Positions 22,190 through 49,057 are shown, counted from the stretch's first letter. The stretch: DNA of 64,000 bases from Candidatus Levyibacteriota bacterium (GCA_041906785.1 JAYRIM010000028.1:121661-185660); one strand, 5' to 3'. Program-made: numbers and translations. Notes: a model not told the origin generated them from the sequence alone.

Positions 22190-22729
22190 ATGAAAATTGG
22201 AATAGATATTTCACAAACTGCTTATGAAGGAACCGGAGTTGCAAATTTCCTTGAAAGATTGGTAGAAACTCTACTAAAAATTGATGAAACGAATGAATAC
22301 ATTTTATTTTATTCATCGCTTCGGAAAAAATTTCCAATTTCCAATTTCCAATTTCAAATTTCAAATAAAAACTTCACAATAAAACAGTTTAAATTACCTC
22401 CAAGCTTACTTGATATATTGTGGAATAAGTTGCATATTGTTCCCATTGAAACATTGATTGGAGATGTAGATGTATTTATATCTTCAGACTGGACTCAACC
22501 ACCTACAAGTAAAGCAAAGCAGGTGACAATTCTCTATGACTTAATTGTGTATACATATCCTGAAGAAACAGACAAAAAAATTGTTGAAGTGCAAAAAAGA
22601 AGACTACAGTGGGTAAAAAAAGAATGTGATCAGATACTATGCATTTCAGAATCCACAAAAAATGATGCAATGAGAATTCTAGGCATAGAAAAGGAGAGGT
22701 TACAGGTTATTTATCCTGGTGTACAATAA
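22190..22729 (+). CDS. GT4 glycosyltransferase, N-terminal (acceptor) domain only. Either a truncated tandem paralog or a pseudogene remnant. Contains a 35-nt heptamer repeat tract.
   Basis: MKIGIDISQTAYEGTGVANF ... ends at YPGVQ*, exactly where the GT4 C-terminal domain would begin. The next gene is a full-length paralog that has its own N-terminal domain. Confidence 0.55.
   Translation: MKIGIDISQTAYEGTGVANFLERLVETLLKIDETNEYILFYSSLRKKFPISNFQFQISNKNFTIKQFKLPPSLLDILWNKLHIVPIETLIGDVDVFISSDWTQPPTSKAKQVTILYDLIVYTYPEETDKKIVEVQKRRLQWVKKECDQILCISESTKNDAMRILGIEKERLQVIYPGVQ
22331..22365 (+). repeat. heptanucleotide tandem repeat tract (3x TTTCCAA + 2x TTTCAAA = 35 nt) inside the GT4 N-domain ORF
   Basis: Read directly from the sequence; encodes FPISNFQFQISN. 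The 7-nt unit is not a multiple of 3. Confidence 0.85.
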
Positions 22730-22733
22730 GAAT

Positions 22734-23885
22734 ATGATTATCGGAATTGATGGAAATGAAGCAAATGTTGCACATAAAGTTGGCATCAGCGAGTATGCTT
22801 TTGAACTGTTGTCACAGTTCAAAAATATCAAATATCAAATATCAAATATCAAATATCAAATTTATCTTAAAGATAAACCACGAATTGATTTACCAGCTGA
22901 ATCTGAATATTGGAAGTATCGGGTATTTGGACCGAAAAAACTATGGACGCAATGGAGATTACCGCTTGAGTTATTCGCTCATAGACCCCGACCAAATGTT
23001 TTTTTTACACCTTCTCATTATGCCCCGCGTTTCTCGCCAATTCCACGTGTGGTTTCGGTCATGGATCTTTCTTATATCCATTTTCCAGAAATGTTTAAAA
23101 AAGACGATTTATATCAACTTGTTAACTGGACAAAGTACTCAATCCAAAAATCAAAAGCTATCATTACAATCAGTGAATCAAGCCGAAATGATATAATTGA
23201 AGAGTATGGTGTTTCGAAAGAAAAAGTTCACGTTGTGTATCCAGGAATTAAAGAAATAGTAGATTTACAACCGCATATTTACGCTATGAGTGAATTACAT
23301 ACGAAATACAATATAAATAAAAATTACATTCTTTTTGTTGGAACACTCCAGCCTCGAAAGAATATTGCTCGCCTTATTGAAGCTTTTGCAAAAACGCTGA
23401 AAAATGCGGATCTAGACGCTGAAAAACGCGGAAATTTAGAATTGGTAGTGGTAGGAAGAAAGGGATGGTTATATGAAGAAATTTTAACTGCGCCTGAAAA
23501 ATATAGTATAAAAGAGCATGTTCGATTCCTCGATTATGTACCCGATGAAGATTTACCTTTACTGTATAAACAAGCTTTGTTTTATATACTTCCCAGTCTC
23601 TATGAAGGATTTGGCCTGCCTGTGCTTGAAGCGATGCAATATGAGTGTCCAGTAATAACAAGCAACATTTCGAGTCTTCCAGAGGCTGCAGGGGAGGCGG
23701 CGCTATATATTGACCCTCATAATGTTGATGATATAGCTGAGAAAATGGAAAAACTATTAAAGAGTCCTTCATTACGTAAAGAATTAATTGAGAAAGGGAA
23801 AAAGCAAGTAAAAAAATTTAGTTGGGAAAAAGCTGCAAAAGAAACACTTGCTATTTTAGGAGAAGTAGCTAAAAACAAAGTGTGA
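22734..23885 (+). CDS. GT4 glycosyltransferase (full length; contains a 35-nt heptamer repeat tract)
   Basis: MIIGIDGNEANVAHKVGISEY ... EGFGLPVLEAMQYECPVITSNISSLPE (the EX7E region). The internal ATG at 22734 is preferred over the GTG at 22719. Confidence 0.8.
   Translation: MIIGIDGNEANVAHKVGISEYAFELLSQFKNIKYQISNIKYQIYLKDKPRIDLPAESEYWKYRVFGPKKLWTQWRLPLELFAHRPRPNVFFTPSHYAPRFSPIPRVVSVMDLSYIHFPEMFKKDDLYQLVNWTKYSIQKSKAIITISESSRNDIIEEYGVSKEKVHVVYPGIKEIVDLQPHIYAMSELHTKYNINKNYILFVGTLQPRKNIARLIEAFAKTLKNADLDAEKRGNLELVVVGRKGWLYEEILTAPEKYSIKEHVRFLDYVPDEDLPLLYKQALFYILPSLYEGFGLPVLEAMQYECPVITSNISSLPEAAGEAALYIDPHNVDDIAEKMEKLLKSPSLRKELIEKGKKQVKKFSWEKAAKETLAILGEVAKNKV
22825..22859 (+). repeat. heptanucleotide tandem repeat tract (5x ATATCAA = 35 nt) inside the full-length GT4
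   Basis: Read directly; encodes NIKYQISNIKYQI; non-triplet unit. Confidence 0.85.
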
Positions 23886-23908
23886 TCTAATTTTAAGATC
23901 CTACCCAT

Positions 23909-23965
23909 GTTGTATTGTTGAATTGTTATATTGTTAGGAACAATAAAGCAATATAACAATAGCAA
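23909..23965. repeat. intergenic TTGTTATATTG inverted-repeat element, copy A
   Basis: GTTGTATTGTTGAATTGTTATATTGTTAGGAACAATAAAGCAATATAACAATAGCAA: direct TTGT(T)ATATTG units followed by their reverse complement CAATATAACAA. Confidence 0.6.
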
Positions 23966-24569
23966 TTTTAAACATATGAAGGATAAAAACGGAAACCAAC
24001 TCACTCAAAAAGAGTTGCAGCGAAAATTGAGAAATCGATTAGCCACAGTAAGTTTAGAATTTACTGTGTACTTTCTACATCTTGTCGGATGTATCCCCAG
24101 TCATACTATTCGTCGTTTTTTCTATTCATTAGCTGGTTTACAGATTGGAGAAGGTTCTACGATTCATATGCATGCCACATTGTACAATCCAATGAATATT
24201 ACTATTGGCCAGGATACTTTAATAGGTGAGGGAGTTGTTCTAGATGGGAGAGATAAACTTTCTATCGGAGATCATGTCGATATGGCTTCTGAAGTTATGA
24301 TTTACAATGCTGAACATGATGTTCAAAGTGAAGATTTTCATGCAGTCACAGCAGCTGTCCGTGTTGAAGATTATGTATTTATAGGACCTCGTGCAATCAT
24401 ATTACCCGGAGTAACTATTGGAAAAGGTGCTGTAGTAGGGGCAGGTGCTGTAGTCACAAAAACAGTAAATCCTTTTGAAATAGTAGGTGGTGTTCCTGCA
24501 AAAGTTATAGGTGAAAGGAAACAAAAAGATCTTCATTATAAACTCGGTAGAGCAGCATGGTTCAGGTAA
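23931..24569 (+). CDS. hexapeptide-repeat sugar O-acetyltransferase (left-handed beta-helix)
   Basis: Repeated [LIV]G-x4 hexapeptides: IGPRAIILPGVTIGKGAVVGAGAVV. ORF starts at a TTG; the true start may lie downstream. Confidence 0.7.
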   Translation: MLGTIKQYNNSNFKHMKDKNGNQLTQKELQRKLRNRLATVSLEFTVYFLHLVGCIPSHTIRRFFYSLAGLQIGEGSTIHMHATLYNPMNITIGQDTLIGEGVVLDGRDKLSIGDHVDMASEVMIYNAEHDVQSEDFHAVTAAVRVEDYVFIGPRAIILPGVTIGKGAVVGAGAVVTKTVNPFEIVGGVPAKVIGERKQKDLHYKLGRAAWFR

Positions 24570-24605
24570 AAGTATTTAGTATAAAGTATTATGTATTAAG
24601 TATTT

Positions 24606-25451
24606 ATGCAATTAATTTCTATTTTAATTTTGAGCTACAATACTAAAGATTTGCTCAGAATTTGTTTGCAATCTATCTATAAAAATCTATCAAACGTTTC
24701 GTTTGAAGTGATTGTACTAGACAACGCATCTAAAGACGGTAGTCCTGAAATGATTAGAAAAGAATTTCCTGATACGAAAATAATAGTTTCTGAAAAAAAT
24801 TTGGGATTTGCCAAGGGAATGAATGAAGCTGTCAAAAAAGCAAAAGGAGACTATTTGTTATTCCTTAATTCAGATGCTATCTTAACAGACTCTACAGTAT
24901 TTAATATGCTTACATTTTCAGAGTCATCGGCAGATGTTGCTATAGTTGGTGGACAGTTACTCGATGCTGATGGTACTCTACAGCGATCCTTTGGAAATTT
25001 TTATACTCTTCCCATGGCGTTTATTCTGTTATTCGCTGGAGAGAAGGTGGAATTAGCATTACAAAATACCAAAACAATAAAGCAGGTTGATTGGGTAAAT
25101 GGAGGTTTTATGCTTATTAAAAAAGATATTTTTGAGAGAGTAAAAGGGTTTGATGAACGGTATTTTATGTATGTAGAGGATATGGATTTATGTTATAGAG
25201 TAAAACAAGCAGGATATAAAACCTTTTTTTACCCCACAGCAACTGCTATTCATACAAATCAAGGCAGCTCAAACCGTTCATTTGCTATTCAACACATTCA
25301 TAAAGGATTACTCCTTTTTTATAAAAATCATAAATCTTATCTAGAATATCTGATTCTTAAAGCACTTATTCTTTTAAAAGAAACAATATTAACGTTTATA
25401 GGAATGATAACTGGTAACTCATATTTGAAAACGACATATAAACATACATAA
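24606..25451 (+). CDS. GT2 family glycosyltransferase
   Basis: ISILILSYNTKDLL ... VIVLDNASKDGS ... FLNSDA ... YVEDMDLCYR. Confidence 0.8.
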   Translation: MQLISILILSYNTKDLLRICLQSIYKNLSNVSFEVIVLDNASKDGSPEMIRKEFPDTKIIVSEKNLGFAKGMNEAVKKAKGDYLLFLNSDAILTDSTVFNMLTFSESSADVAIVGGQLLDADGTLQRSFGNFYTLPMAFILLFAGEKVELALQNTKTIKQVDWVNGGFMLIKKDIFERVKGFDERYFMYVEDMDLCYRVKQAGYKTFFYPTATAIHTNQGSSNRSFAIQHIHKGLLLFYKNHKSYLEYLILKALILLKETILTFIGMITGNSYLKTTYKHT

Positions 25452-25454
25452 AAA

Positions 25455-28400
25455 ATGAAATATTTTAAATGGTTAAAAGATAATATTCTTTTTGTTATTA
25501 CGCTTTTCTTGTTAGCTTTTATCCCGCTCTATCCAAAGAAGCCATTGTTAGACATTAAAAACACTTGGGTTTATATAAGAGCTGAAGATTTTATCGTAGT
25601 TTTAGTTATGGCTTTTTGGATATTTCTGCTTATACGGAAAAAAATTACTCTGAGAACACCGTTAACACTGCCTATCTTATTTTTTTGGCTCGCAGGGGCT
25701 ATAGCTACTATCCATGGTGTAATCCTTATTTTTCCTACAATTGCAAATGTTTTTCCCAATGTTTCATTTCTCAGTTTTCTAAGACATATAGAATACATGA
25801 GTTTATTTTTCATAGCGTATAGCGGAATGAAACATAAGCGTTTTTTACCCATTGTTATTACAACATTAACCATTACTCTTCTACTCGTCATCGGTTATGG
25901 TTTCGGACAAAAATATTTAGGATTTCCTGCATATCTAACAATGAACGAGGAGTTTGCGAAAGGAATTCCAATACGATTATCAGCTTTATCAAGAGTTCCT
26001 TCAACATTTGCTGGACATTATGATTTAGCTGCGTATCTGGTTTTAATTATTCCTATACTTGCAAGTTTAATTTTCGGCTTTCGAAATTGGTTGATAAAAA
26101 TAAGTCTCCTAATAACAATCGTGTTGGGTTTTGGATTACTTTTTATGACAGTATCACGTGTTTCATTTTTTGTTCTCTTTCTTGCACTTTTTATCGTACT
26201 CTTCTTTCATAAAAAACGATTTGTTATTTTCTCAATTCCTATTATTGCAGTATTAACGTTTATTTTTATTTCTCTTCAACCATCTCTCTTTGATAGGTTT
26301 ACAAGCACTGTTAAAGATGTAGATGTTCTTATAGACGCAAAAACCGGAGAAGCCTTAGGTCATGTAAAGTACCTATCAGCAGAACAATTTAAAAATAAAA
26401 CTATTTGGCAGCAAGATGTTCGTAGTAAGAATGAAATAGCAGCGATCATAGGTGATGAAAAAGATGAAGTACTAGAAGCATCTCCCTCAGCTTTATTTCC
26501 CTATGAAAATCTCACTCCGGAAGTTCCTGTTTTTATTGCAACTAACATATCAACTGGCGAGAATTTACCACAGGGAACAGGGTATATAAACCTTTCACTT
26601 TCTCCAGTAACAAAAAAACTCGGGTGGTTCATTTATGAACGACAATCAAATCCAGAAAAGTCTATATCTGAAAAAGTCTATGCATTAAATGGAACGTTTT
26701 TAATTAAAAGAGCAGCTGCATATGATCTATCATTTACAACACGATTTCAAGGGGAATGGCCAAACACAATAAAAGCATTTAAGAGAAATATTTTCTTCGG
26801 AAGCGGGTACGGCTCTGTGAGCCTCGCTGTTGATAATAATTATCTTCGGATGTTAGGGGAAATTGGATTATTAGGTCTACTGTCTTTTATAGGTATTTTT
26901 GTGATTATCGGAATTTATATCCGTAAAATCCTCCCTGACGTTGATTCGAATTTGGCAAAAAGTTTTGTTATTGGATTCGTAGCCGGAGTTGTCGGATTAT
27001 TTTTTAATGCATTTTTGATTGATGTTTTCGAAGCATCCAAAATTGCGTTTAGCTTATGGCTTTTGGCAGGAATAACAGTCGGACTTCTAGATTTATATAA
27101 GAAAAAGGATATAAATCTCAGCCAGGAGTTTTTACATGCAATTACTTCTCCTTTAGCAATTATTGTTTATTTAATTACTGCAGTTATAGTTCTTTATACA
27201 CCAATGATCAGTAACTATTTTATAGGTGATGATTTCACATGGTTTAGATGGGCTGATATGGGAGGAAACATTCTTACTTATTTTACACAAGCAGATGGTT
27301 TTTTTTATCGACCTGGAACAAAAATTTATTTTTATCTTATGTATTCAGTTTTTTGGCTAAACCAATCCGTATATCACGCCGTTTCTTTAGTGCTACATTG
27401 TATGATTATTATAGAGTTCTTTTTACTTGCAAAAAAAATCTTTGGGAGAACGCTTTCAGCGTCTCTCGCGGCGTTTCTTTTTCTTATTATTAGCGGATAT
27501 TTTGAAAGTATTTTTTGGATCTCATCTACAGGACATCTTTTCTCTTCCGTTTTTATTTTAGGAAGTCTTCTTTTTTATATTGTTTGGGAAGATAATAAAA
27601 AAACACTTTATTTTATTGCCTCAATTCTATCATTTATATGTAGTCTTCTCTTTTATGAATTAGGTATCGTTACGCCTCTTCTTATTTTATTGTACGCAGC
27701 ATATAAAAGAGAGACATATAATATTTCTTTTATACTTAAGAGAATAGAGTATGTATTCTATATAATTCCATTGATTTTCTATTGGCTTATTCGATATGCT
27801 GCTCAAAGCCATTGGCTAAACGGGGATTATAACTATAATATTATAAAACTACCTTTTAACGCGATTGGTAATAGTATTGGTTATTTCTCTTTAACATTAT
27901 TTGGTCCTATCGTCTTACCTTTTTATGAAAAATTAAGAGATTTCTCAAAGCTTCATGTCGGTTTGACAATGATCGTTGTTTTTTCTGCTTCTGTCCTAGT
28001 GTTCTTTTTATATAAAACACAAAGAAAAAAGATTAATAAAAGAGATAATAGTATTTTTCTTTTTGGTTTTTTCTTTTTTGTTATATCCTTAATACCATTC
28101 TTAGGATTAGGAAATATCACTTCTCGCTATAGCTATTTAGCTTCATTGGGATTAATTATAATTCTTGTTCTTGTCTTAGAGAAAATATATAACCTTTTAT
28201 CAACGAGTGGAAAAAACATCGCTTTTGGAAGTATGGTAGTTGTTCTTATGGTATTCAGTCTTTTCCATATCATGCAAATCCAGCAGATTCACAGTGATTG
28301 GTATGAAGCTGGGCAAAAGGTAAAGAGATTTTTTATAGTAATTGATGAACTATATATTGATGAATGGTCACGGGAACCACTTTCATTGTATTTTGTAAAT

Positions 28401-28628
28401 GTTCCTATACGGCATGGAGACGCATGGGTATTTCCGGTTGGTTTAAAAGATGCTTTATGGTTCTCATTTAAGAATCCTCAATTATCTGTCAACACCACAA
28501 CATCAGCGAACGATGCATTGAATGCAGCTGCGCATTCTGTAAATCCGAAAGTCTTCGAATTTAATGAAGATGGAACACTTGTAGAGCTAACAAGAGTTAA
28601 AGGAAAAATTATAAAAATTAACCGCTAA
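25455..28628 (+). CDS. 1057-aa giant membrane protein: an O-antigen ligase/polymerase-like (Wzy_C) domain fused to a second polytopic GT-C-like domain and a C-terminal soluble domain
   Basis: FGSGYGSVSLAVDNNYLRMLGEIGLLGL is Wzy_C/WaaL-like; at least 20 TM helices in total; C-terminal ~130 aa hydrophilic. Confidence 0.5.
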   Translation: MKYFKWLKDNILFVITLFLLAFIPLYPKKPLLDIKNTWVYIRAEDFIVVLVMAFWIFLLIRKKITLRTPLTLPILFFWLAGAIATIHGVILIFPTIANVFPNVSFLSFLRHIEYMSLFFIAYSGMKHKRFLPIVITTLTITLLLVIGYGFGQKYLGFPAYLTMNEEFAKGIPIRLSALSRVPSTFAGHYDLAAYLVLIIPILASLIFGFRNWLIKISLLITIVLGFGLLFMTVSRVSFFVLFLALFIVLFFHKKRFVIFSIPIIAVLTFIFISLQPSLFDRFTSTVKDVDVLIDAKTGEALGHVKYLSAEQFKNKTIWQQDVRSKNEIAAIIGDEKDEVLEASPSALFPYENLTPEVPVFIATNISTGENLPQGTGYINLSLSPVTKKLGWFIYERQSNPEKSISEKVYALNGTFLIKRAAAYDLSFTTRFQGEWPNTIKAFKRNIFFGSGYGSVSLAVDNNYLRMLGEIGLLGLLSFIGIFVIIGIYIRKILPDVDSNLAKSFVIGFVAGVVGLFFNAFLIDVFEASKIAFSLWLLAGITVGLLDLYKKKDINLSQEFLHAITSPLAIIVYLITAVIVLYTPMISNYFIGDDFTWFRWADMGGNILTYFTQADGFFYRPGTKIYFYLMYSVFWLNQSVYHAVSLVLHCMIIIEFFLLAKKIFGRTLSASLAAFLFLIISGYFESIFWISSTGHLFSSVFILGSLLFYIVWEDNKKTLYFIASILSFICSLLFYELGIVTPLLILLYAAYKRETYNISFILKRIEYVFYIIPLIFYWLIRYAAQSHWLNGDYNYNIIKLPFNAIGNSIGYFSLTLFGPIVLPFYEKLRDFSKLHVGLTMIVVFSASVLVFFLYKTQRKKINKRDNSIFLFGFFFFVISLIPFLGLGNITSRYSYLASLGLIIILVLVLEKIYNLLSTSGKNIAFGSMVVVLMVFSLFHIMQIQQIHSDWYEAGQKVKRFFIVIDELYIDEWSREPLSLYFVNVPIRHGDAWVFPVGLKDALWFSFKNPQLSVNTTTSANDALNAAAHSVNPKVFEFNEDGTLVELTRVKGKIIKINR

Positions 28629-28630
28629 TT

Positions 28631-30091
28631 ATGGCAAAACTCTTCTCAAAAAATACATTGTTGCTATTATTTGTAGTTATAGTAGGTTTTCTCTTGAGGC
28701 TTTATAAAATTGAAAATCCGATTGCTGATTGGCATAGTTGGAGACAGGTCGATACGTCAGCTGTATCAAGAACTTTCGTAACAAACGGTTTTGATATTTT
28801 ACATCCTCGTTTTGAAGATATTTCGAACGTTCCTTCGGGAAAAGATAATCCTGAAGGATATAGATTTGTAGAATTTCCTCTCTATAATATTTTTCAAGCA
28901 GGTTTTTATACTATATTTGATACATTTTCACTGGAAGTTTGGGGAAGATTAGTAACAATATGTTCCTCACTACTAGCAGGAATATTCTTATATGTATTAG
29001 TAAAGAGGCATTCAGATGAACTTACTGCATTATGTGTGTCAATCGTGTACCTTACATTACCTTTTAATGTCTATTTCGGTAGAACTGTTCTTCCGGATCC
29101 TTCTATGATTATGACAATTCTTGCTGGGATTTATTTTTTTGACAATTATGTAGAAAAAACAAATAAGAAAAAAGCACTTTACTACATGCTTGCAGTTGTT
29201 TTTACCGCTTCTTCATTTCTGCTGAAACCGTACGCATTATTTTTTACACTCCCTATGTTTTATTTGGTGATTAAAAAATATCCTCGGAGTTTTTTTAAAC
29301 AATGGCAACTTTGGCTTTTTATTTTTTTAACAGTTTTTCCTCTCCTAGGCTGGCGTCAATGGATATCGCAATTCCCTGAAGGAATTCCGGCGAGTGATTG
29401 GTTATTTAATGCAGGTAACATCCGTTTTACTGGAGCATATTTTTACTGGATTTTTGCTGATAGAATTGCACGATTAATCTTAGGATATTGGGGAATAACA
29501 TTTTTCATTTTTGGAATACTGTTTGGAAAAACAGTATTAAAAGAGAAGAAAGACTTTGGTTTTTTTATCAGTTTTATTTTTTCATCACTTTTATATCTCA
29601 TTATTATTGCTAGAGGAAATGTCCAACATGACTATTATCAAATTGCGATTGTTCCTTCTCTATCTATTTTTACAGGATTAGGATTACGTTTTTTGATTAA
29701 CAATTCTCTACACGAATTAGATAAAAAAATCACAATCACTGCAGTAACTATATTACTTTTATTTATGTATATGTTTAGTTGGTATTTTGTTAGAGATTAT
29801 TACAATATAAATAATAAATCGATAATAATAGCTGGTGCTGCTGTGGATGAGAAAACACCTAAAAATGCGAAAGTAGTTGCTCCTTATGATGGAGATACCA
29901 CGTTGCTTTATTATACATATCGACAAGGATGGGCAAGTTTTCAAAATCCTCTTCCTGAATTAATTCAAAAAGGCGCAACACATCTTGTTCTCATTAACCC
30001 TTCAGAAAAAGATCGTGAGATTGGGAAAACATATAAAATTATTGCAGATACGAAAGAATATATTTTATTTGATTTAAGAAAATCACCATGA
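28631..30091 (+). CDS. ArnT/PMT-like GT-C glycosyltransferase (GT39/GT83-like)
   Basis: N-terminal LLRLYKIENPIADWHSWRQVDTSAVSRTF is typical of the ArnT/PMT family; ~11 TM helices. Confidence 0.6.
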   Translation: MAKLFSKNTLLLLFVVIVGFLLRLYKIENPIADWHSWRQVDTSAVSRTFVTNGFDILHPRFEDISNVPSGKDNPEGYRFVEFPLYNIFQAGFYTIFDTFSLEVWGRLVTICSSLLAGIFLYVLVKRHSDELTALCVSIVYLTLPFNVYFGRTVLPDPSMIMTILAGIYFFDNYVEKTNKKKALYYMLAVVFTASSFLLKPYALFFTLPMFYLVIKKYPRSFFKQWQLWLFIFLTVFPLLGWRQWISQFPEGIPASDWLFNAGNIRFTGAYFYWIFADRIARLILGYWGITFFIFGILFGKTVLKEKKDFGFFISFIFSSLLYLIIIARGNVQHDYYQIAIVPSLSIFTGLGLRFLINNSLHELDKKITITAVTILLLFMYMFSWYFVRDYYNINNKSIIIAGAAVDEKTPKNAKVVAPYDGDTTLLYYTYRQGWASFQNPLPELIQKGATHLVLINPSEKDREIGKTYKIIADTKEYILFDLRKSP

Positions 30092-31296
30092 ATATTTTAT
30101 TAATTTCTTCATATTTGCCTTATCCGCTTTATTCTGGTGGACATATCCGACTATTTAATTTAATTAAAGAACTATCGAAAAAGCACAGAATAACATTGGT
30201 TTGCGAGAAACGTGCGTACCAAACTGAAAAGGATATTATGGAAGTCGCCAGGTACTGTGACACTGTTCATACAGTTCACAGGAATAAGCAGTGGAGTCTA
30301 AAAAACATTATAAAAACAGGTTTCTCATTTAAGCCTTTTTTATTAGTCGGTCATGACCATAATGATATGAAGAAAAAGATTAAGGAGTTACTTGAGAAAA
30401 AAAAATTTGATGTCATACATGTTGAAACATTCTACGTACTGCAAAACGTTCCGGAGACTGAAATTCCGATAATACTTGTAGAACATAATATTGAATATTC
30501 AGTATATAAACGGTACGCAGATCAGGCAAAAATTTTTCTTCGTCCATTCTTTTATATTGATGTTAAAAAACTAGAAATCGCTGAAAAAAAATCATGGAAT
30601 AGAGTACATAAAGTAATCGCAGTTTCAGAAATTGAAAAGAAAAAAATAGGAATAGATGGCGTAGAAGTAGTGCCAAATGGTGTAGATCTAGGTCTTTTTA
30701 CTTTTAGAAAACCACTAGAAAAATCATATCATTCTGTTGCTAAACAAGCGCATATGCCAGAGAAAGAGTTGTTATTCATAGGTGATTTTTCTTGGATTCA
30801 AAATCGTGATGCAGTAAAATGGATTATTAATGATATTTGGCCATATTTGTTACGCGCAGTTGAAGGAGAAATTAAAATTAAGTTCCACATCGCAGGAAGA
30901 CAGATTCCTTCGGAAATTAGATCTTTAAGCACATATGACAGCATTATATATACAGAAAATTCACCAAATACTGTAGAACTTTTTAAGAATGCAGATGTAC
31001 TATTAGCGCCGATACGAGTAGGGGGTGGAACGAGCTATAAAATATTGGAAGCAATGGCTACAGGCGTCCCCGTAGTAACAACATCGTTAGGTATTGAAGG
31101 TTTACAGGCCAAACCTGATGTTCATGCTATATGTGCAGACGAAACACAAGCTCTGGTTGAAAAAACAGCTCGGCTTTTGAGAGATACAACTCTCTATGAG
31201 AATGTAGGAAAAAATGCACGGAAACTCATAGAAGAAAAATATAATTGGAAAGTAATTGCAAAGAAATTAGAAGAAGTGTATGAAGCTATAAAATAA
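30088..31296 (+). CDS. GT4 family glycosyltransferase
   Basis: C-terminal GGGTSYKILEAMATGVPVVTTSLGIEG donor-binding region. Confidence 0.8.
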   Translation: MNILLISSYLPYPLYSGGHIRLFNLIKELSKKHRITLVCEKRAYQTEKDIMEVARYCDTVHTVHRNKQWSLKNIIKTGFSFKPFLLVGHDHNDMKKKIKELLEKKKFDVIHVETFYVLQNVPETEIPIILVEHNIEYSVYKRYADQAKIFLRPFFYIDVKKLEIAEKKSWNRVHKVIAVSEIEKKKIGIDGVEVVPNGVDLGLFTFRKPLEKSYHSVAKQAHMPEKELLFIGDFSWIQNRDAVKWIINDIWPYLLRAVEGEIKIKFHIAGRQIPSEIRSLSTYDSIIYTENSPNTVELFKNADVLLAPIRVGGGTSYKILEAMATGVPVVTTSLGIEGLQAKPDVHAICADETQALVEKTARLLRDTTLYENVGKNARKLIEEKYNWKVIAKKLEEVYEAIK

Positions 31297-31360
31297 TTGT
31301 TATATTGCTAAATTGTTATATTGTTTTAGGATTAGAGCGATGTAACAATACAACAATCCT
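31294..31360. repeat. intergenic TTGTTATATTG inverted-repeat element, copy B
   Basis: AATTGTTATATTGCTAAATTGTTATATTGTTTTAGG...GTAACAATACAACAATCC between the GT4 stop and the GT2 start. Confidence 0.6.
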
Positions 31361-32266
31361 ATGTTTGATCTCTCGATAATTATCATTTCTTTTAATACAA
31401 AAGAATTTTTAAAAAAATGTTTACTTTCGATTAGAGAAAATACCTCGAAACCATTAAATTATGAAATTATCGTTGTTGATAATAACTCTTCAGATGGAAC
31501 AAAGGATGAGATTTCCAATTTTTCTTCTCAAATTTCCAATTTCAAATTGATTGAGAATGAAGAGAATGTTGGGTTCGCAAAAGCTTGCAATATTGGTGTA
31601 AAACAAGCAAAAGGCAGATATATATTATTTCTTAATCCTGACACGCATATTTTTAAACATACTTTAAATGAAATGGTTTCCTTTATGGATTTTCATAAAG
31701 AAGCTGGAGCCGCAACATGTTTTGTAGAATGGCCAAATCGAAAACTAGATGATGGTGCTCATAGAGGATTTCCAACTCCCTGGAATGCTTTTTGTTATTT
31801 TTCTGGTTTAGCGAAATTATTTCCGAAATCTTTATTGTTTAATGGGTATAATTTAGGGTTTAAGCATCTTGATACTGTGCATGAAATTGATGCACTAACT
31901 GGAGCTTTTATGATAGTAAGAAGAGAGGCTGGAGAAGAAATTGGATGGTGGGATGAAGATTATTTCTTTAATGGTGAAGATCTGGATTTTTGTTTTAAAT
32001 TAAAAGAAAAAGGTTGGAAAATATATTTTATTCCGACTGTAAAAGTCTTACATTATAAAGGAGTCTCGAGTGGCATTAAATCTATATCACGTGATATTAC
32101 TACTGCCGATAAAGCATTACGAATAAAAATAACAAAGGCGAGGTTTGATGCAATGCGATTATTCTACAAAAAGCATTATAAGAATACATATCCAGGAATT
32201 CTTACTTGGTTAGTAATGCTCGGGGTATCCTTAAAAGAAAAATTAGCGCTTCGAACAATATCCTAG
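31361..32266 (+). CDS. GT2 family glycosyltransferase (carries an in-frame insert of ATTTCCAATTT repeats)
   Basis: LSIIIISFNTKEFL ... IIVVDNNSSDGT ... FLNPDT ... FFNGEDLDFCFK. Confidence 0.8.
   Translation: MFDLSIIIISFNTKEFLKKCLLSIRENTSKPLNYEIIVVDNNSSDGTKDEISNFSSQISNFKLIENEENVGFAKACNIGVKQAKGRYILFLNPDTHIFKHTLNEMVSFMDFHKEAGAATCFVEWPNRKLDDGAHRGFPTPWNAFCYFSGLAKLFPKSLLFNGYNLGFKHLDTVHEIDALTGAFMIVRREAGEEIGWWDEDYFFNGEDLDFCFKLKEKGWKIYFIPTVKVLHYKGVSSGIKSISRDITTADKALRIKITKARFDAMRLFYKKHYKNTYPGILTWLVMLGVSLKEKLALRTIS
31510..31541 (+). repeat. two ATTTCCAATTT copies separated by 10 nt inside the GT2 gene. Shares the 18-mer AATTTCCAATTTCAAATT with the tract at 22331-22365.
   Basis: GAGATTTCCAATTTTTCTTCTCAAATTTCCAATTTCAAATTG encoding EISNFSSQISNFKL in the loop after the DGT motif. 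Confidence 0.7.
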
Positions 32267-32359
32267 ATATATATTTCGATCTTCTTAGTCATGAAAGCTA
32301 TGTTATACTTGAGGTATGACCCTTCGGTAAACTCAGGGTCATAGTGAGTTTATGGAACT

Positions 32360-33499
32360 ATGAAAATCGGGATTGATGTTCGACTCTGGAATGAGACTGG
32401 AGTAGGTCGGTATATTCGGAATTTGGTTAAAAACTTGCATGAGATTGATAAAGTTAATGACTATATTTTATTTGCAAGAGCAACTGATGTAGAAAGTATT
32501 AAGTATTATGTATCAAGTATTAAGTGGAAAATAGTTGTTGTAAATATTCGATGGCACTCTTTTAAAGAACAGTTGAAGTTTCCCCAAATTCTCTATAGAG
32601 AGAATCTAGATCTTATGCATTTTCCTTATTTCTCCGTTCCATTTAACTATAGAAAACCTTTTATTGTAACCATACATGATCTTATCATTTATCATTATTC
32701 GACAGGAAAAGCATCGACGCTTCCTTTACCTTTTTATCAGTTGAAACGTTTAGGATATAAATTTGCTATAAAGCAAGCTATTCATAACGCTAAAAAAGTA
32801 ATTGTCCCTCTGCAATCGGTTAAAGAGGACGTTATAGAAACCTTACAAGCTGATCCAAAAAAGATTATAGTAACTCAAGAAAGTGTTGATGAAGAAATTA
32901 ACAATGCTAATAGACAAATGATCAATCCACAATTAAAATCAGAGAATTATTTTCTTTATGTTGGTAATGCTTATCCACATAAAAATATTCAAACGTTACT
33001 GCAGGCGTTCGAATCATTTAAAAAACAAATTGTCCATCATAACGTTAAGCTATTTTTAGTTGGAAAAAAAGATTATTTTTATTCTCAGTTAGAAAACAAT
33101 TTAAAAGAAAAACAGGGAAATGCAGTACATATTTTTCATACCATTGATGATTCTATGTTACATGAATTGTATGATAATGCGATTGCTCTCATAGCACCAT
33201 CTTTTATAGAAGGTTTTGGTTTAGTACCCTTAGAGGCAATGGCGAACAATTGTCTGGTAATAGCGTCTGATATTCATGCGCATCGAGAAGTTTGTCAAGA
33301 CGCTGCGGTTTACTTTCCTGCTCATGATCAATCAGAATTAACAAATAGAATGATTGAAGTTTTTACACAGACTAATAATTCAATATTTGAAAATTTGAGA
33401 CAAAAAGGATTGAAAAGAGTAAAAAACTTTTCCTGGAAGCGTATGACTCAGGAAACATTGAAAATCTATGAAAGTTGCATTAGTGTACGACAGAGTTAA
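32360..33499 (+). CDS. GT4 family glycosyltransferase (carries an in-frame AGTATTAAGT repeat insert)
   Basis: MKIGIDVRLWNETGVGRYIRNL ... EGFGLVPLEAMANNCLVIASD. Confidence 0.8.
   Translation: MKIGIDVRLWNETGVGRYIRNLVKNLHEIDKVNDYILFARATDVESIKYYVSSIKWKIVVVNIRWHSFKEQLKFPQILYRENLDLMHFPYFSVPFNYRKPFIVTIHDLIIYHYSTGKASTLPLPFYQLKRLGYKFAIKQAIHNAKKVIVPLQSVKEDVIETLQADPKKIIVTQESVDEEINNANRQMINPQLKSENYFLYVGNAYPHKNIQTLLQAFESFKKQIVHHNVKLFLVGKKDYFYSQLENNLKEKQGNAVHIFHTIDDSMLHELYDNAIALIAPSFIEGFGLVPLEAMANNCLVIASDIHAHREVCQDAAVYFPAHDQSELTNRMIEVFTQTNNSIFENLRQKGLKRVKNFSWKRMTQETLKIYESCISVRQS
32494..32526 (+). repeat. AGTATTA(A/T) repeat insert inside the GT4, near-identical to intergenic 24583-24607
   Basis: AAGTATTAAGTATTATGTATCAAGTATTAAG (in-gene) versus AAAGTATTATGTATTAAGTATTT (intergenic upstream of the GT2 at 24606). 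Confidence 0.65.
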
Positions 33500-34553
33500 T
33501 AAATGGGGCGGGGCAGAAAGAGTACTTTTAGCCTTTCACGAATTATTTCCAGATGCTCCTCTATATACATCGGTTTATAATCCTGAGACTGCTCCATGGG
33601 CAAGTGCGTTTACAATAAAGACTTCGTTCCTACAAAATCTGTCATATTTTCGTAATAAACATGAACTGCTTCCTCTCCTTATGCCAATCGCTTTCGAAAG
33701 CTTTATTTTTGATGAATACGATCTTGTTATTTCTATAACAAGTGAATTTGCGAAAGCAATAATTACGAAACCTGGGACAAAGCATATTTGCTATTGTTTA
33801 ACACCTACCCGCTATTTATGGAGTGGATATGATGAATATTTTAAAAACAAAGTTTTACGGACTTCTACGAAATTCTTAATACGAAATCTACGAAAATGGG
33901 ATCGAATTGCAGCACAAAGACCAGATGCATATATCGCTATATCGAAAGAAGTACAGGGGAGAATTAAAAAATATTATGGAAGAGAATCAGAAGTTGTGTA
34001 TCCACCAGTAAGTTTACAAAATTCAAGATTTAAGATTCAAGATTTAAGAATAAATAAAAAAGAACAATATTTTTTAATTGTGTCACGGCTTGTAAGATAT
34101 AAAAGAATCGATCTTGCGATACGAGCATGCAATGAACTGCAATTTCCACTTAAAATTATTGGTATTGGAAGTGAGGAAAAAAGATTAAGGACAATTGCTG
34201 GTCCTACAATTGAATTTGTGGGCTCTGTAGATGAGGAAACACTTGCGCGATACTATTCTCAATGTCAAGCACTTCTTTTCCCTGGATACGAAGATTTTGG
34301 ATTAGCAATGGTTGAAGCACAGCTTTTCGGAAAGCCAGTGATCGCATTCCATAAAGGTGGTGCAGAGGAGATAGTTCTTCATGGAAAAACAGGTTTACTC
34401 TTCGATTCACAAACAGTTGCATCTTTGTCCTCTGTTTTAGGAGCATTTGAAAAAAATGACTTTGATAAGGAAGTTATTATGAAACACGCAGCTCAATTTA
34501 ATAAAGAACATTTTAAGAAAGCTTTCTTATCTGAATTAAAGAAATTATTATGA
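33468..34553 (+). CDS. GT4 family glycosyltransferase
   Basis: MKVALVYDRVNKWGGAERVL ... EDFGLAMVEAQLFGKPVIAFHKGGAEE. Confidence 0.8.
   Translation: MKVALVYDRVNKWGGAERVLLAFHELFPDAPLYTSVYNPETAPWASAFTIKTSFLQNLSYFRNKHELLPLLMPIAFESFIFDEYDLVISITSEFAKAIITKPGTKHICYCLTPTRYLWSGYDEYFKNKVLRTSTKFLIRNLRKWDRIAAQRPDAYIAISKEVQGRIKKYYGRESEVVYPPVSLQNSRFKIQDLRINKKEQYFLIVSRLVRYKRIDLAIRACNELQFPLKIIGIGSEEKRLRTIAGPTIEFVGSVDEETLARYYSQCQALLFPGYEDFGLAMVEAQLFGKPVIAFHKGGAEEIVLHGKTGLLFDSQTVASLSSVLGAFEKNDFDKEVIMKHAAQFNKEHFKKAFLSELKKLL
34021..34052 (+). repeat. 2x 14-nt direct repeat (ATTCAAGATTTAAG) inside GT4 33468..34553
   Basis: AAATTCAAGATTTAAGATTCAAGATTTAAGAATAAA encoding SRFKIQDLRINKK in the inter-domain linker. 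Confidence 0.6.
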
Positions 34554-34618
34554 GAGAATTATAGGATCTTTTAGGTGCCAAATTTGAATTCCTACTCATC
34601 ATTTAGTAGAATAAGTAT

Positions 34619-35704
34619 ATGAAGATCGTTCTCTTCGCAGGTGGTGTCGGTTCGAGATTGTGGCCGTTATCTAGGAAAAACTCTCCTAAACAGTTTGAGA
34701 AAATCATAGCAGATCGTTCAATGCTTCAGATAGCAGTTCATAAACTTTTTCCTGAATTTAAATGGGAAGATATTTATATTTCGACGGGGAAAACATATAA
34801 AAACATTATTATAGAACAGCTCCCTCAGCTTCCGAAAAACAATATCATTATTGAACCTGAAATGCGTGATGTTGGTCCGGCTGTGGGGTTAATCATCGCT
34901 CAGTTTGCGAAAACTAATCCAGACGAACCCATTGTTCTCCTTTGGGGAAGTGATCATTTAGTAAAGCGAGAAGATTATTTTAGAAAAATTCTTAGAACTG
35001 CTGAAAAACTCGTGTTAGAAAAACCAGAAAGCATTGTTTTTATAGGTCAAAAACCTCGATATGGAAATCAAAATGTTGGTTATATAGAGTTCGGTCGTGA
35101 GCAAACAAAAAGAGATGATTTGTCAGTATATGAATTTAAGAGTTTTCAATATGCTCCTCCTCTTGAAATTGCACAAAGATACGCGAATGACGGAAAACAT
35201 GCCTGGAATTTGGGATATTTTGTCACAACAGCTGGATTTTTATGGAAATTATTTGAGAAATTTTCTCCAGAATTATTTAAACAGTTGAAGCAAATTCAGG
35301 ACGCCTTCGGCACACCAGCATATGAGAAAGTATTACAAAGGATTTATCCTACTATTGAAAAAATCTCTTTTGACCATGCGGTCCTTGAAAGAATGGATCC
35401 AGAATCCGGTATGGTAATTTCAGCAGATATTGGCTGGAGTGACATAGGTGCGTGGGAAGCTATGAAAGAGGCATTAAGCGATACTGTAGAATCAAATGTT
35501 ACGAAAGGTAAAATTATTCTCGAAGATTGTACAGATTCAATAGTTCATAATTCTACAGAACAATTAGTAGTAGGAATAGATTTAAATGGATTAGTTGTTG
35601 TCAGTACTGATGATGTAATACTTATTTGCCCGAAAGATTCAGTACCCAAAATTAAAAAATTTGTTACAAGTCTTAAGGGCACTGAGCATGAACATCTAAC
35701 TTAG
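34619..35704 (+). CDS. manC: mannose-1-phosphate guanylyltransferase-like sugar nucleotidyltransferase
   Basis: MKIVLFAGGVGSRLWPLSRKNSPKQF nucleotidyltransferase motif; ~360 aa and lacks an isomerase domain. Confidence 0.7.
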   Translation: MKIVLFAGGVGSRLWPLSRKNSPKQFEKIIADRSMLQIAVHKLFPEFKWEDIYISTGKTYKNIIIEQLPQLPKNNIIIEPEMRDVGPAVGLIIAQFAKTNPDEPIVLLWGSDHLVKREDYFRKILRTAEKLVLEKPESIVFIGQKPRYGNQNVGYIEFGREQTKRDDLSVYEFKSFQYAPPLEIAQRYANDGKHAWNLGYFVTTAGFLWKLFEKFSPELFKQLKQIQDAFGTPAYEKVLQRIYPTIEKISFDHAVLERMDPESGMVISADIGWSDIGAWEAMKEALSDTVESNVTKGKIILEDCTDSIVHNSTEQLVVGIDLNGLVVVSTDDVILICPKDSVPKIKKFVTSLKGTEHEHLT

Positions 35705-35705
35705 C

Positions 35706-36371
35706 ATGCACTACATAGAAGTTAAAAAGAGTCGCAGATACGAAGTAACAAAACGATTCATAGACATAGTTTTTTCTTTCATTTTACTCATATTATTTCT
35801 TCCTATTATTATTGTCGTTGCAATAGCAATAAGGTTGGAAACGGAAGGGCCTATTTTTGCTGACACTCCTCCTCGAGTAGGAAAAAAAGGTAAATTATTT
35901 AAAATGTATAAGTTCAGATCAATGGTCCAGAATGCATACGAATTACTTAAATCTGATCCAGAATTTGCGAAGCTCTATCAAGAATATAAGCTTGGAAGTT
36001 ATAAATTAAAAAATGATCCACGAGTTACGAAAGTAGGTAAATTTATTCGAAAGCATTCTTTAGATGAAGTGCCTCAACTAATGAATAGTTTAAAAGGAGA
36101 TATGAGCGTCGTTGGGCCACGTGCATATTATCCTGATGAACTGAAAGAACAACAGCAACGATACCCTCAAACGAAAGAAGCAGTTAAGATTGTGCTTTCT
36201 GTAAAACCAGGAATTACAGGTTATTGGCAGGTATCGGGAAGAAGTGAAATAAATTTTGATAAACGTATCCATATGGATGCTGAGTATGTGAAAAAACGTT
36301 CGATACTTTTTGATTTACACATCATTGCTAAATCACCTTGGGCTATGATTTCAGGAAAAGGAGCACACTGA
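35706..36371 (+). CDS. polyprenyl-phosphate hexose-1-phosphate transferase (bacterial sugar transferase; WbaP/WcaJ C-terminal-domain type), initiating enzyme
   Basis: One N-terminal TM, then DEVPQLMNSLKGDMSVVGPRAY, the signature of the Bac_transf family. Confidence 0.8.
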   Translation: MHYIEVKKSRRYEVTKRFIDIVFSFILLILFLPIIIVVAIAIRLETEGPIFADTPPRVGKKGKLFKMYKFRSMVQNAYELLKSDPEFAKLYQEYKLGSYKLKNDPRVTKVGKFIRKHSLDEVPQLMNSLKGDMSVVGPRAYYPDELKEQQQRYPQTKEAVKIVLSVKPGITGYWQVSGRSEINFDKRIHMDAEYVKKRSILFDLHIIAKSPWAMISGKGAH

Positions 36372-36375
36372 AAGT

Positions 36376-36425
36376 TATGAGTTATGAGTTATGAGTTATG
36401 AGTTGTAGGTTGTAAGTTGTAGGTT
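36376..36425. repeat. heptamer tandem repeats (4x AGTTATG, then 3x RGTTGTA) with a GC-rich imperfect hairpin downstream (to ~36470)
   Basis: AAGTTATGAGTTATGAGTTATGAGTTATGAGTTGTAGGTTGTAAGTTGTAGGTTG followed by CCCGCCTGCAACG...GCGGGCAGG. Confidence 0.8.
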
Positions 36426-36504
36426 GCCCGCCTGCAACGTTTTGCGTAGCAATGCGGGCAGGTGGGTTGGGAATTAAAAAATAAAGTGTAGTTACATTTG
36501 ACAT

Positions 36505-42228: not shown

Positions 42229-42407
42229 TCGAGTTTGTAGTCTAGATATAATATGGTATAATTTATGTAATTAAAGTTTGTTTATGCAAAATATTTCGGA
42301 AATAATTACTAGTGCACAGATTGCAACAGGTCTTGCAATAATTGCGTTTATACTATTGGTTCTTGCTTTTAAGAAGCATTCGCATCGTAAGTAGAGATAA
42401 GTTTCTT

Positions 42408-43202: not shown

Positions 43203-43228
43203 ATTTTATGTATAAAATTTTGGTGATT

Positions 43229-43258
43229 GGGGGGCCCCGATGTGAAATCGGGACCCCC
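43229..43258 (-). terminator. GC-rich hairpin at the left boundary of the high-GC island (candidate terminator of the minus-strand phosphorylase gene)
   Basis: GGGGGCCCCGAT-gtgaa-ATCGGGACCCCC (11-bp stem with one mismatch); an A/T-rich run follows on the minus strand. Confidence 0.4.
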
Positions 43259-43304
43259 TCCGCACCAGTTGACTCGAGTTGAAGGCGTCAGTGAGTGTAG
43301 CTTC

Positions 43305-45147: not shown

Positions 45148-45159
45148 ACGTAGCCCTCC

Positions 45160-47649: not shown

Positions 47650-48093
47650 ATGTTTCAGGGACAATACCGTGTTAAAATAGGAGAATTTTTTCGAGTTGCG
47701 TTTCCGAGAACATACAGAGATCGACTGGGTGAGAAGATTATTATCACGTACGGGTTTGAGAGTTCACTAATAATCACATCTGAGAGCCAGTGGGATGCGC
47801 TTTACAAAAAGGAAATTGAAGGTAAATCGTTCCTATTCCCAAATGTTCGGGATATAAGAAGATTTTTTCTCGGTGGAATAGCGACAATTGAATTTGATAA
47901 ACAAGGAAGATTTATTATTCCTGAATATTTACGCACATACGGAGAACTAGTAGATCAAAAAGAAGTGACATTCGTATGGCAGAAAGAATACGTGGAACTT
48001 TGGAATTCGAAGAGATGGGCTGAGAAAGAAAAAGAATTATTACGAAATATTAGCGTTATCGCAGAAAAATTATCGGAAACTGATAAGGTTTAA
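47650..48093 (+). CDS. mraZ: transcriptional regulator MraZ
   Basis: MFQGQYRVKIGEFFRVAFPRTYRDRL ... a duplicated MraZ-domain protein of 147 aa; first gene of the dcw cluster. Confidence 0.9.
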   Translation: MFQGQYRVKIGEFFRVAFPRTYRDRLGEKIIITYGFESSLIITSESQWDALYKKEIEGKSFLFPNVRDIRRFFLGGIATIEFDKQGRFIIPEYLRTYGELVDQKEVTFVWQKEYVELWNSKRWAEKEKELLRNISVIAEKLSETDKV

Positions 48094-48184
48094 TTTCCAG
48101 TTTCGAATTTCCAGTTGCCAATTAATTTGAAATTAATGAATTAATCAATTTACCGGAAATTGGAAAATCGAAATTCGAAACTAA
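48094..48184. repeat. ~90-bp imperfect palindrome filling the mraZ-rsmH spacer
   Basis: TTTCCAGTTTCGAATTTCCAGTTGCCAATTAATTTGAAATTAATGAATTAATCAATTTACCGGAAATTGGAAAATCGAAATTCGAAACT, centred on TTAATGAATTAA. Contains the TTTCCA(A/G) motif and its complement. Confidence 0.55.
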
Positions 48185-49057
48185 ATGGATACTTATCATA
48201 CACCTGTCCTTTTACAAGAAACAATTGAATTTTTAGATGTTCAGTCAGGAAAACGATACATTGATGCAACATTAGGTGGTGGTGGACATACTGAAGCTAT
48301 ACTGAAGCTTGGTGGTACTGTGTTGGGAATAGATACGGATGAAGAGGCTGTTACACACGTTCAAGAGAAACTAAAAATTAAAAACGAAAAAATAAAAATT
48401 ACTAAGGGGAATTTTAGGAATATTGACGAAATAGCAAGAGTGAATGGGTTTGAAAATGTAGATGGCATACTGTTTGACCTGGGTGTTTCAAGTCATCAAT
48501 TCGATAGCGCTGAACGGGGTTTTAGCTTTTTAAAAAAAGGACCATTAGATATGCGTATGGATCGAAGGCTTGGTGTAACTGCGAAAGATTTACTTGCGGT
48601 GCTATCTAAAACAGATCTGGCGAAATTATTTATAGAATACGGAGAAGAGCGATTCGCACATAAAATAGCTGATGCTATCGTAAAACGAAGAGAAATTAAG
48701 CCTATTGAAAGCACAGAAGAGTTAGAAGCATTAATTCGAATGGTAGTTCCTAAGAAGGAAGTCATCCATCCAGGAACACGGGTATTTCAGGCCTTACGAA
48801 TAGCAGTAAACACAGAACTTGAAAATATAGAAGAGGCATTGCCCAAAGCGATCGAATTAGTACACGTAAAAGGCAGAATTGCGGTTATCAGCTTTCATTC
48901 ATTGGAAGATAGAATTGTAAAACGTACATTTGCGGATTGGGAAGAAAATAACATTGGAAATATACTTACGAAGAAACCTGTGATACCAAGCGAAAAGGAG
49001 ATTGCAGAAAATCCTAGAAGCAGAAGCGCAAAATTAAGAGTTTTTGAAAAAATATGA
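48185..49057 (+). CDS. rsmH: 16S rRNA (cytosine1402-N4)-methyltransferase RsmH
   Basis: YIDATLGGGGHTEAIL ... FDLGVSSHQFD motifs. Confidence 0.9.
   Translation: MDTYHTPVLLQETIEFLDVQSGKRYIDATLGGGGHTEAILKLGGTVLGIDTDEEAVTHVQEKLKIKNEKIKITKGNFRNIDEIARVNGFENVDGILFDLGVSSHQFDSAERGFSFLKKGPLDMRMDRRLGVTAKDLLAVLSKTDLAKLFIEYGEERFAHKIADAIVKRREIKPIESTEELEALIRMVVPKKEVIHPGTRVFQALRIAVNTELENIEEALPKAIELVHVKGRIAVISFHSLEDRIVKRTFADWEENNIGNILTKKPVIPSEKEIAENPRSRSAKLRVFEKI

Follow-up and report, generated by a model that had tools for sequence, protein, structure and literature searches.

The question raised by this locus is what the short repeats carried inside three consecutive glycosyltransferase genes of an uncultivated bacterium are, and whether they could turn those genes on and off. 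The genes lie near the centre of a 64,000-nucleotide (nt) stretch of DNA from Candidatus Levyibacteriota bacterium (GCA_041906785.1 JAYRIM010000028.1:121661-185660), referred to here, in its full length, as the window. One is a family 2 and two are family 4 glycosyltransferase (GT) genes, named GT2_31361, GT4_32360, and GT4_33468 after their start positions. An earlier note on this DNA had described a short direct repeat inserted in frame at a loop of each enzyme, and had proposed that either a mobile microsatellite seed or a DNA-binding motif was spread over the locus, with a potential for phase variation. Our own reading, to which we assign a probability of roughly 55%, is that all three are degenerate representatives of heptanucleotide microsatellites, a slippage-prone class that is found throughout the lineage, sits at permissive linkers, and is possibly kept as low-frequency contingency switches.

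Three heptanucleotide tracts in adjacent genes

All three features proved to be tandem tracts of period 7, translated in frame (Table 1). The sequences quoted in the earlier note lie where it had placed them, and the likenesses that it drew between sites were borne out. The 18-mer AATTTCCAATTTCAAATT occurs exactly at 31531-31548, in the GT2 tract, and at 22343-22360, in the upstream tract that the note had given as 22331-22365; with up to three mismatches it matches the window 10 times as against 1.1 expected, a count reached in 0 of 100 shuffles. The GT4_32360 sequence AAGTATTATGTATCAAGTATTAAG (32501-32524), said to be nearly identical to the intergenic 24583-24607, equals 24584-24607 at 21 of 24 bases, where no match was expected. 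The double 14-mer of GT4_33468, ATTCAAGATTTAAG, is present as two exact tandem copies starting at 34021 and 34035, with no dispersed copies elsewhere in the window. Microsatellite-type tracts are therefore found at the locus in coding as well as non-coding DNA, as had been claimed. Within the GT4_32360 tract, the variant unit ATGTATC avoids the in-frame TAA that a perfect AAGTATT repeat would contain.

Significance was assessed with dinucleotide and triplet shuffles, and the answer to whether base composition could account for the motifs was divided. The GT4_32360 tract has a lag-7 self-match of 17/21, a threshold reached at 8 window sites versus 0.06 in shuffles, and the GT4_33468 tract scores 18/21 (4 sites versus 0). 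The GT2 tract scores only 14/21 (19 sites versus 6 expected) and taken alone is not significant by this measure. In four orthologues (L034, L123, L090, and L052), however, a DNA alignment places a perfect (AATTTCC)4-5 where the window GT2 gene has GATTTCCAATTTTTCTTCTCAAATTTCCAATTTCAAATTG, at equal length. Because of these perfect arrays at the same site and of the same length, together with the exact 18-mer, we count the GT2 tract among the others, as what appears from the alignment to be a decayed copy. None of the three window tracts is perfect: GT4_33468, with its 2 x 14 nt, has the longest perfect element, and elsewhere there are about two perfect units at most, which is neither long nor perfect enough for frequent slippage.

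Period and distribution among related loci

Related loci were collected by scanning one genome per species (80 loci) and metagenomes (80 loci), and the comparison took in 162 loci with 1.77 Mb that derived mostly from metagenome-assembled genomes (MAGs) of Candidatus Levybacteria. Tandem tracts of periods 2-21 were counted at a threshold of at least 18/21 self-matches. Period 7 accounted for 233 tracts, period 14 for 152, and period 21 for 18; any other period from 2 to 20 was represented by at most 9, and triplet-shuffled sequence yielded none. Heptanucleotide tandem repeats are a lineage-wide class in Levybacteria-like Patescibacteria. The window itself holds 5 tracts of period 7 and 6 of period 14, again with none in shuffles. 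The units are diverse: in the first set, made up of 80 loci and the window, 90 different ones, mostly A-rich on the coding strand (136/157) and stop-free, occur among 186 tracts. The longest tract observed, a perfect (ATAAATC) x11 at 464-547 of locus L008, fills the spacer between two co-directional genes.

The tracts are concentrated in one class of genes. In the genome-derived set, the 464 kb of GT genes (GT4, GT2, and PMT_2) carried 150 tracts, or 0.323 per kb. There were 7 tracts in 21 kb of rsmH (0.340 per kb) and 21 in 52 kb of intergenic DNA (0.41 per kb), whereas the 639 other genes carried a single tract in 659 kb (0.002 per kb). The independent metagenome loci, which contain no rsmH, gave 90 tracts in 246 kb of GT genes (0.365 per kb), 0 in 144 kb of other genes, and 3 in 16 kb of intergenic DNA (0.19 per kb). 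Tracts were absent from the orthologues of the nucleotidyltransferase (68), Bac_transf (64), DUF4012 (62), RecO (56), ProRS (50), and 1057-aa protein (48) families. Overall, 162 of the 186 first-set tracts (87%) were genic. Relaxed constraint or composition of the GT genes as the cause of this enrichment was ruled out by their similar GC content (35.4% versus 37.5% in other genes) and divergence (mean identity 53% versus 56%), several tract-free families being more divergent than the GTs. Since tract density in GT genes is about 200 times that in other genes of like composition and divergence, the tracts have probably been retained by selection.

Fixed sites in the encoded proteins

Tracts lie at the same residues of orthologous proteins, the three window sites included, while the unit varies by genome; GT4, GT2, and PMT_2 genes all carry them at such fixed positions (Table 1). 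Between the GVGRY and WH anchors, GT4_32360 orthologues have a modal length of 46 residues both with a tract (n = 60) and with non-periodic sequence (n = 61). The corresponding GT2 segment of the window is 41 aa (orthologue modes 38, 41, and 43), and the GT4_33468 linker is 20 aa within a family range of 14-55 aa. Because these lengths match those of orthologues at all three sites, the tracts are not insertions; of the claim that they had been inserted in frame, only the frame stands. At a second site of GT4_32360, the interdomain linker ("site B"), tract-bearing orthologues have extra length modes about 7 residues longer, the outcome expected of changes by three units.

The loop position proposed earlier was roughly right. 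In the AlphaFold model of GT4_32360 (predicted local distance difference test score, pLDDT, 90), residues 45-56 run from the end of helix 41-48 into the loop that precedes strand 56-60, and the interdomain linker is the region of lowest confidence. From alignment and this equivalent linker, the GT4_33468 tract would likewise fall at the interdomain-linker position. The tract positions are structurally permissive, comprising the beta2-alpha2-beta3 connection of Rossmann-type domains and the GT-B interdomain linker. When translated, the tracts yield 7-residue heptad peptides free of stops, for example IKYQISN and FKFQISN.

In four GT2 orthologues (L030 1139-1157, L022 ~2262-2283, L013 ~378-397, and L051 ~9236-9262), the tract was also seen to hold in its middle, in frame, a small GC-rich hairpin (about 21 nt), one of which, GCCCCGATTAAATCGGGGT, encodes QPRLNRG; proteins P0013, P0036, and P0091 have similar inserts at the GT4 site.

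Changes in copy number

At each of the three window tracts, gain or loss of 7 or 14 nt brings a stop codon within about 12 codons of the tract, with products of 49-67 aa or 190-197 aa, and ±21 nt keeps the frame. Each of the three open reading frames (ORFs) thus contains a repeat whose unit is not a multiple of 3, one of several features by which contingency loci are recognised. Changes of this kind were found in relatives. Between locus pairs at least 99% identical (~100 kb aligned), internal indels were confined to heptamer tracts. A 14-nt (two-unit) indel in locus L082 relative to L083 splits the GT4_32360 orthologue into ORFs of 52 and 343 aa, the longer product comparing with 380 aa in the intact gene. 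Only one indel, of 7 nt and in an intergenic tract, distinguishes locus L138 from L048 and L140, loci that are 99.5% identical. In L042, the orthologue of GT4_30088 is frameshifted exactly at (AGATCAA)n, and one added unit restores 405 aa. Virtual edits of ±7 or ±14 nt, made in search of off alleles, gave six candidates, five of which were artefacts that arose where intergenic tracts fuse neighbouring genes. The 19 protein clusters at 90% identity that were inspected held only one tract indel (the P0158 allele); their other length differences were alternative starts, contig-end fragments, or a divergent C-terminus. In L022 (1502-1540), the ORF called for the orthologue of GT4_30088 runs into a stop codon where its (AGTTCGA)n tract begins, possibly a nonsense or frameshift allele.

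Contigs of the source sample were inspected for signs of heterogeneity. A Logan contig (L001; source run SRR26835457) is identical to window 22832-36402 and begins inside the 22823-22861 tract; the k=31 assembly breaks there and at a second perfect tract (36373-36404). The first break, in a 39-nt perfect tract, was considered as heterogeneity and set aside, such a break being expected at k=31. At the second, contigs L001 and L164 end and begin within a 32-nt AGTTATG run that has no repeated 31-mer (36377-36402, a 26-nt overlap); this may be a weak hint of copy-number heterogeneity, or reflect low coverage or end trimming, and no simple two-allele graph accounts for the 26-nt overlap.

Table 1. 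Positions of the glycosyltransferase genes and heptamer tracts of the window, and of tract sites in GT families (aa, residues; TRF, Tandem Repeats Finder)
Feature	Coordinates	Strand	Context and evidence
GT2_31361, family 2 glycosyltransferase, 301 aa	31361..32266	+	host gene; PF00535, 1.3e-30
GT4_32360, family 4 (GT-B) glycosyltransferase, 379 aa	32360..33499	+	host gene; PF00534 and PF13439; AlphaFold model
GT4_33468, family 4 (GT-B) glycosyltransferase, 361 aa	33468..34553	+	host gene; domain search
Apparently decayed heptanucleotide tract (ATTTCCA/ATTTCAA type)	31511..31548	+	in GT2 gene, codons ~51-63, encodes ISNFSSQISNFKL; TRF 31528-31548, x3.0
Heptanucleotide tract AAGTATT AAGTATT ATGTATC AAGTATT AAG	32494..32525	+	in GT4 32360-33499, codons 45-56 (SIKYYVSSIKW); TRF AAGTATT x4.6, 84% matches
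Heptanucleotide tract CAAGATT x4.7, also perfect 14-mer ATTCAAGATTTAAG x2.1	34017..34049	+	putative interdomain linker, GT4 33468-34553, codons ~184-194; TRF, period 7 or alternatively 14
Related tract (AATTTCC)3(AATTTCA)2, in frame	22329..22366	+	in ORF 22190-22729; TRF
Related perfect tract (AAATATC) x5.6	22823..22861	+	in GT4 22719/22735-23885; TRF
Intergenic tract, AAGTATT type	24570..24604	+	TRF; ATGTAT variant unit common to 32494-32525
Intergenic tract (AGTTATG) x4.6 then (GTTGTAG) x3.6, then GC-rich hairpin	36373..36426	+	TRF
Two inverted arms of heptamer units (48092-48123, 48155-48182)	48092..48182	+	long hairpin, z -5.4
Weak heptamer tract, AAACTAA type, 79% matches	48368..48398	+	in rsmH (48185-49057)
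Tract site, GT4_32360 family	aa 41-71		29/80 loci; 60/153 in larger set
Tract site, GT4_32360 family	aa 176-214		~30
Tract site, GT4_33468 family	aa 180-211		~22/76
Tract site, GT2_31361 family	aa 42-64		6/60
Tract sites, GT4_30088 family	aa 200-218 and 245-262		
Tract site, GT2_24606 family	aa 48-67		5
Tract site, GT4N_22190 family	aa 45-59		5

Mechanism and competing explanations

Slipped-strand misalignment at heptanucleotide microsatellites is the best-supported mechanism. The proposed sequence of events is as follows: slipped-strand mispairing during replication, together with some exchange between tracts of one genome, would create, homogenise, and resize the tracts; a change by one or two units would turn the enzyme off, and a change by three would alter the linker by 7 residues; selection would then probably retain the tracts as contingency switches that act at low frequency to vary the surface glycans. 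The restriction of tracts to envelope glycosyltransferases suggests this last step, in the form of rare on/off or linker-length switches.

Several observations weigh against retention as switches. Real off alleles number 1 among about 325 tracts in consensus assemblies (<1%), plus one polymorphic pair. Lengths within the 90%-identity protein clusters are nearly always identical (e.g. 14 x 389 aa, 6 x 388 aa). Perfect runs are short: those of 3, 4, 5, 6, and 11 full copies were seen 35, 66, 19, 1, and 1 times, with a peak at 4 copies and 6 or more only twice. In the source sample, the reads assembled at k=31 pass unbranched through all three window tracts. rsmH, which is not a surface gene, bears tracts as well, and the constancy of the 7-nt unit goes unexplained by slippage and selection of this kind. 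With off alleles nearly absent and tracts short, switching is likely to be much rarer than at classical contingency loci, and a neutral origin is a serious rival. The potential for phase variation that the earlier note extended to these genes accordingly holds in part: unit changes shift the frame and do occur in relatives, but the three window tracts, being degenerate and passing unbranched through the assembly, are poor candidates for active switching. They are in frame (that is, on), apparently mutationally decayed, and probably close to stable.

The neutral alternative holds that a replication or repair bias of the lineage makes and homogenises 7-nt repeats wherever sequence identity is unconstrained, frameshifts being deleterious accidents. 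In one version, modelled on PimA-type enzymes, GT linkers and the membrane-facing alpha2 segment would accept any peptide of K/N/Q/S/aromatic composition, and tracts would persist there without benefit. The low copy numbers, the stable lengths among close relatives, the scarcity of off tracts, and the decay of the window tracts all agree with it, as do the equal lengths of the GT4_32360 site with and without a tract (which length-neutral homogenisation predicts) and the similar tract density of rsmH and intergenic DNA. It accounts poorly, however, for the tract-free state of genes that are equally or more divergent, such as those for the 1057-aa protein (47% identity), RecO (49%), MraZ (45%), and DUF4012, with 1 tract in about 800 kb of such non-GT coding sequence. 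The tracts fill about 10% of GT gene length, yet their density there equals that of intergenic DNA, and sporadic new tract sites are almost confined to GT genes. We regard this account as possible but, on the whole, doubtful.

A more speculative suggestion, and an improbable one, addresses the constant unit directly: a dedicated process working in a 7-nt register (an unusual polymerase, primase, or repair activity, or a recombination system) might write and homogenise heptamers specifically at the linkers of envelope-glycan enzymes in Levybacteria, and perhaps other Patescibacteria, giving programmed on/off switching, linker tuning, or shuffling of donor and acceptor domains between paralogous GTs. 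If true, ultra-small episymbiotic bacteria would possess a form of targeted hypervariation that is new in kind.

Could the tract sequences themselves have moved, by ectopic gene conversion or within a small mobile cassette? The exact 18-mer common to two window genes would agree with this, and an imperfect cassette, GTAGAAAGTATTAAGTATTATGTATCAAGTATTAAG, identical to the window GT4 tract, recurs nearly unchanged in members of four GT families (GT4_32360, GT2_31361, GT2_24606, and GT4_33468) from at least 7 genomes. An identical unit is found at different sites of the same genome in 4.8% of pairs, 2.7 times the background of 1.8%, and some genomes (e.g. L016 and L048) use one unit at three sites. 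Against these stand the fixed orthologous positions of the sites and their unchanged length, the 95% of same-genome tract pairs that differ in unit, and the lack of any terminal repeats, target duplications, or associated transposase among the tracts seen. A mobile element of the miniature inverted-repeat transposable element (MITE) or repetitive extragenic palindromic (REP) type was ruled out by the orthologous, length-neutral sites, the absence of ends, and the 90 units, a single cassette being all that crosses families. Of the mobile microsatellite seed, then, the microsatellite survives, whereas mobility is at best hinted at by the excess sharing and the one cassette; as a general explanation we think it decidedly improbable. 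The recurrence of GTAGAAAGTATTAAGTATTATGTATCAAGTATTAAG across GT families does account for the "shared seeds", and it lends limited support to what may be occasional exchange between tracts.

That the tracts are sequence-specific DNA or RNA binding sites for a regulator of the envelope operons, translatable by accident, is highly improbable. They are restricted to envelope-related operons and to spacers adjoining start codons, and the intergenic ones form strong predicted hairpins, but the use of 90 units among 186 tracts rules out a DNA-binding motif tolerating translation. An array of regulator sites would likewise share its unit, and identity is found in 4.8% of same-genome pairs and only 2.5% of pairs at the same site in different genomes; a gathering-threshold scan of the whole window matched no Rfam family.

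That the tracts are chance likenesses between AT-rich sequences, or artefacts of assembly, is scarcely credible: the weak score of the GT2 tract and the undispersed ATTCAAGATTTAAG would fit it, but shuffles lack tracts at 17/21 or more and reject it for the class as a whole, the same sites bear tracts in dozens of independent assemblies (the GT2 site among its orthologues included), and the tracts keep their ORFs open.

Programmed -1 frameshifting at a heptamer (X XXY YYZ) was also considered. Only units of the AAATTTC type fit the pattern, AAGTATT and CAAGATT do not, and the shifted frames of the window end within about 12 codons.

Comparison with known repeat systems

The closest parallel is neuO of Escherichia coli K1, a gene of prophage CUS-3 for an O-acetyltransferase that acts on a surface polysaccharide. 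Its 5' coding region contains repeats of the unit AAGACTC, which are translated into heptad peptides; slippage alters the copy number (3-53), only multiples of 3 give the full-length product, and the gene is off in 66% of genomes (PMC13001214). The tracts described here share with neuO the 7-nt unit inside the coding region of a surface-glycan enzyme and the heptad peptides. They differ in having 3-5 copies (maximum 11) and <1% off as against 66%, and in occupying many genes, with several sites per gene, dozens of units, and sites conserved across a deep lineage. In Neisseria, a heptanucleotide repeat in pglE, a glycosyltransferase gene of protein glycosylation, controls the on/off extension of the glycan (PMC7157529). 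That repeat also lies within a glycosyltransferase gene, but it concerns a single gene of a host-adapted pathogen and switches frequently. For non-coding tracts, the account of HMW1A/HMW2A in Haemophilus influenzae describes 7-bp tandem repeats in the promoter that modulate expression (PMC8262952). The intergenic tracts at 24570-24604 and 36373-36426 are comparable as 7-bp repeats upstream of a gene, but many more copies and a demonstrated graded effect are given in that account, and ours are known from sequence alone.

Beyond pathogens, the short tandemly repeated repetitive (STRR) sequences of cyanobacteria, which Mazel et al. are said to have described in 1990, are reportedly lineage-wide 7-nt tandem repeats without established function, with few conserved units and mostly intergenic. 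The lineage-wide excess of exactly 7 nt is alike, but an STRR of that type was rejected here, as the units are highly diverse and the tracts largely genic. The variable seven-residue (21-nt) repeats of Helicobacter pylori FutA/FutB act in a glycosyltransferase as a 'molecular ruler', analogous to a three-unit linker change here, except that their 21-nt unit is frame-neutral.

What differs from the known cases is the combination: environmental Patescibacteria, many genes and sites, an exclusive 7-nt period, conservation of site with turnover of unit, low copy number, and rare off alleles. A search of the literature on simple sequence repeats or phase variation in the candidate phyla radiation (CPR), Patescibacteria, or Levybacteria found nothing relevant, but its coverage was incomplete and novelty is unproven.

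Gene context and other features of the window

The window has a GC content of about 32% and contains no ribosomal or transfer RNA, according to tRNA and Rfam scans of its whole length. Its nearest GT4 homologues are 46-59% identical, and those that are named belong to Patescibacteria, mostly Candidatus Levybacteria. The order GT4_30088, GT2_31361, GT4_32360, GT4_33468, nucleotidyltransferase, priming transferase, DUF4012 is conserved among related loci. On the minus strand, 42400-46320 stands out as a GC-rich island, with 44-57% GC where the rest of the window has about 32%. Its genes are for a phosphoribosyltransferase, an ABC permease (BPD_transp_1), an NMT1/THI5-like binding protein, and one unknown protein, and the island represents either a horizontal acquisition or a chimeric assembly join.

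Further period-7 arrays detected by TRF begin at 22329, 22823, 24570, 36373, 36402, 48092, and 48368. The ORF that houses the first encodes only a GT4 N-terminal domain (179 aa), ends at the domain boundary, and is directly followed by a complete GT4; it has homologues in 22 related loci at up to 74% identity. The tract at 24570 occupies an entire spacer, from the stop codon that ends at 24569 to the ATG at 24606. Around the tract at 36373, the heptamers of 36368-36475 self-fold via G.U pairs and are followed by a GC-rich hairpin, CCCGCCUGC...GCGGGCAGG (-40 kcal/mol, z -6.2, no Rfam match). The inverted arms at 48088-48186 are placed between mraZ and rsmH, and similar inverted pairs occur in L041 (15633-15704, 16605-16670) and L048 (4971-5060). 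At the weak rsmH tract site, 7 of 26 orthologues have clear tracts.

Repeats of other periods were also observed. Two intergenic hairpins, at 23900-23965 and 31290-31362 (shuffle z -3.2 and -4.1), have arms made of period-8 repeats of the TTGTTATA type facing AACAATA, and one of them immediately precedes the start of the GT2 gene at 31361. Three copies of CTGGTGATTT (period 10) at 47604-47633, just upstream of the mraZ start at 47650, resemble what is presumably an MraZ operator built of direct repeats.

Implications

For genomics of this lineage, the tracts have a practical consequence: they break short-read assemblies and can yield spurious "split" GT genes in MAG annotation. The strict 7-nt unit points to a mutational or enzymatic bias. 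The genomes of Patescibacteria are tiny, regulators are few, and the majority of these bacteria are believed to live attached to host cells. If the switches are real, the heptamer tracts would be a first candidate mechanism for surface-glycan variation, and with it escape from phage, host, or predator, in these uncultivated bacteria.

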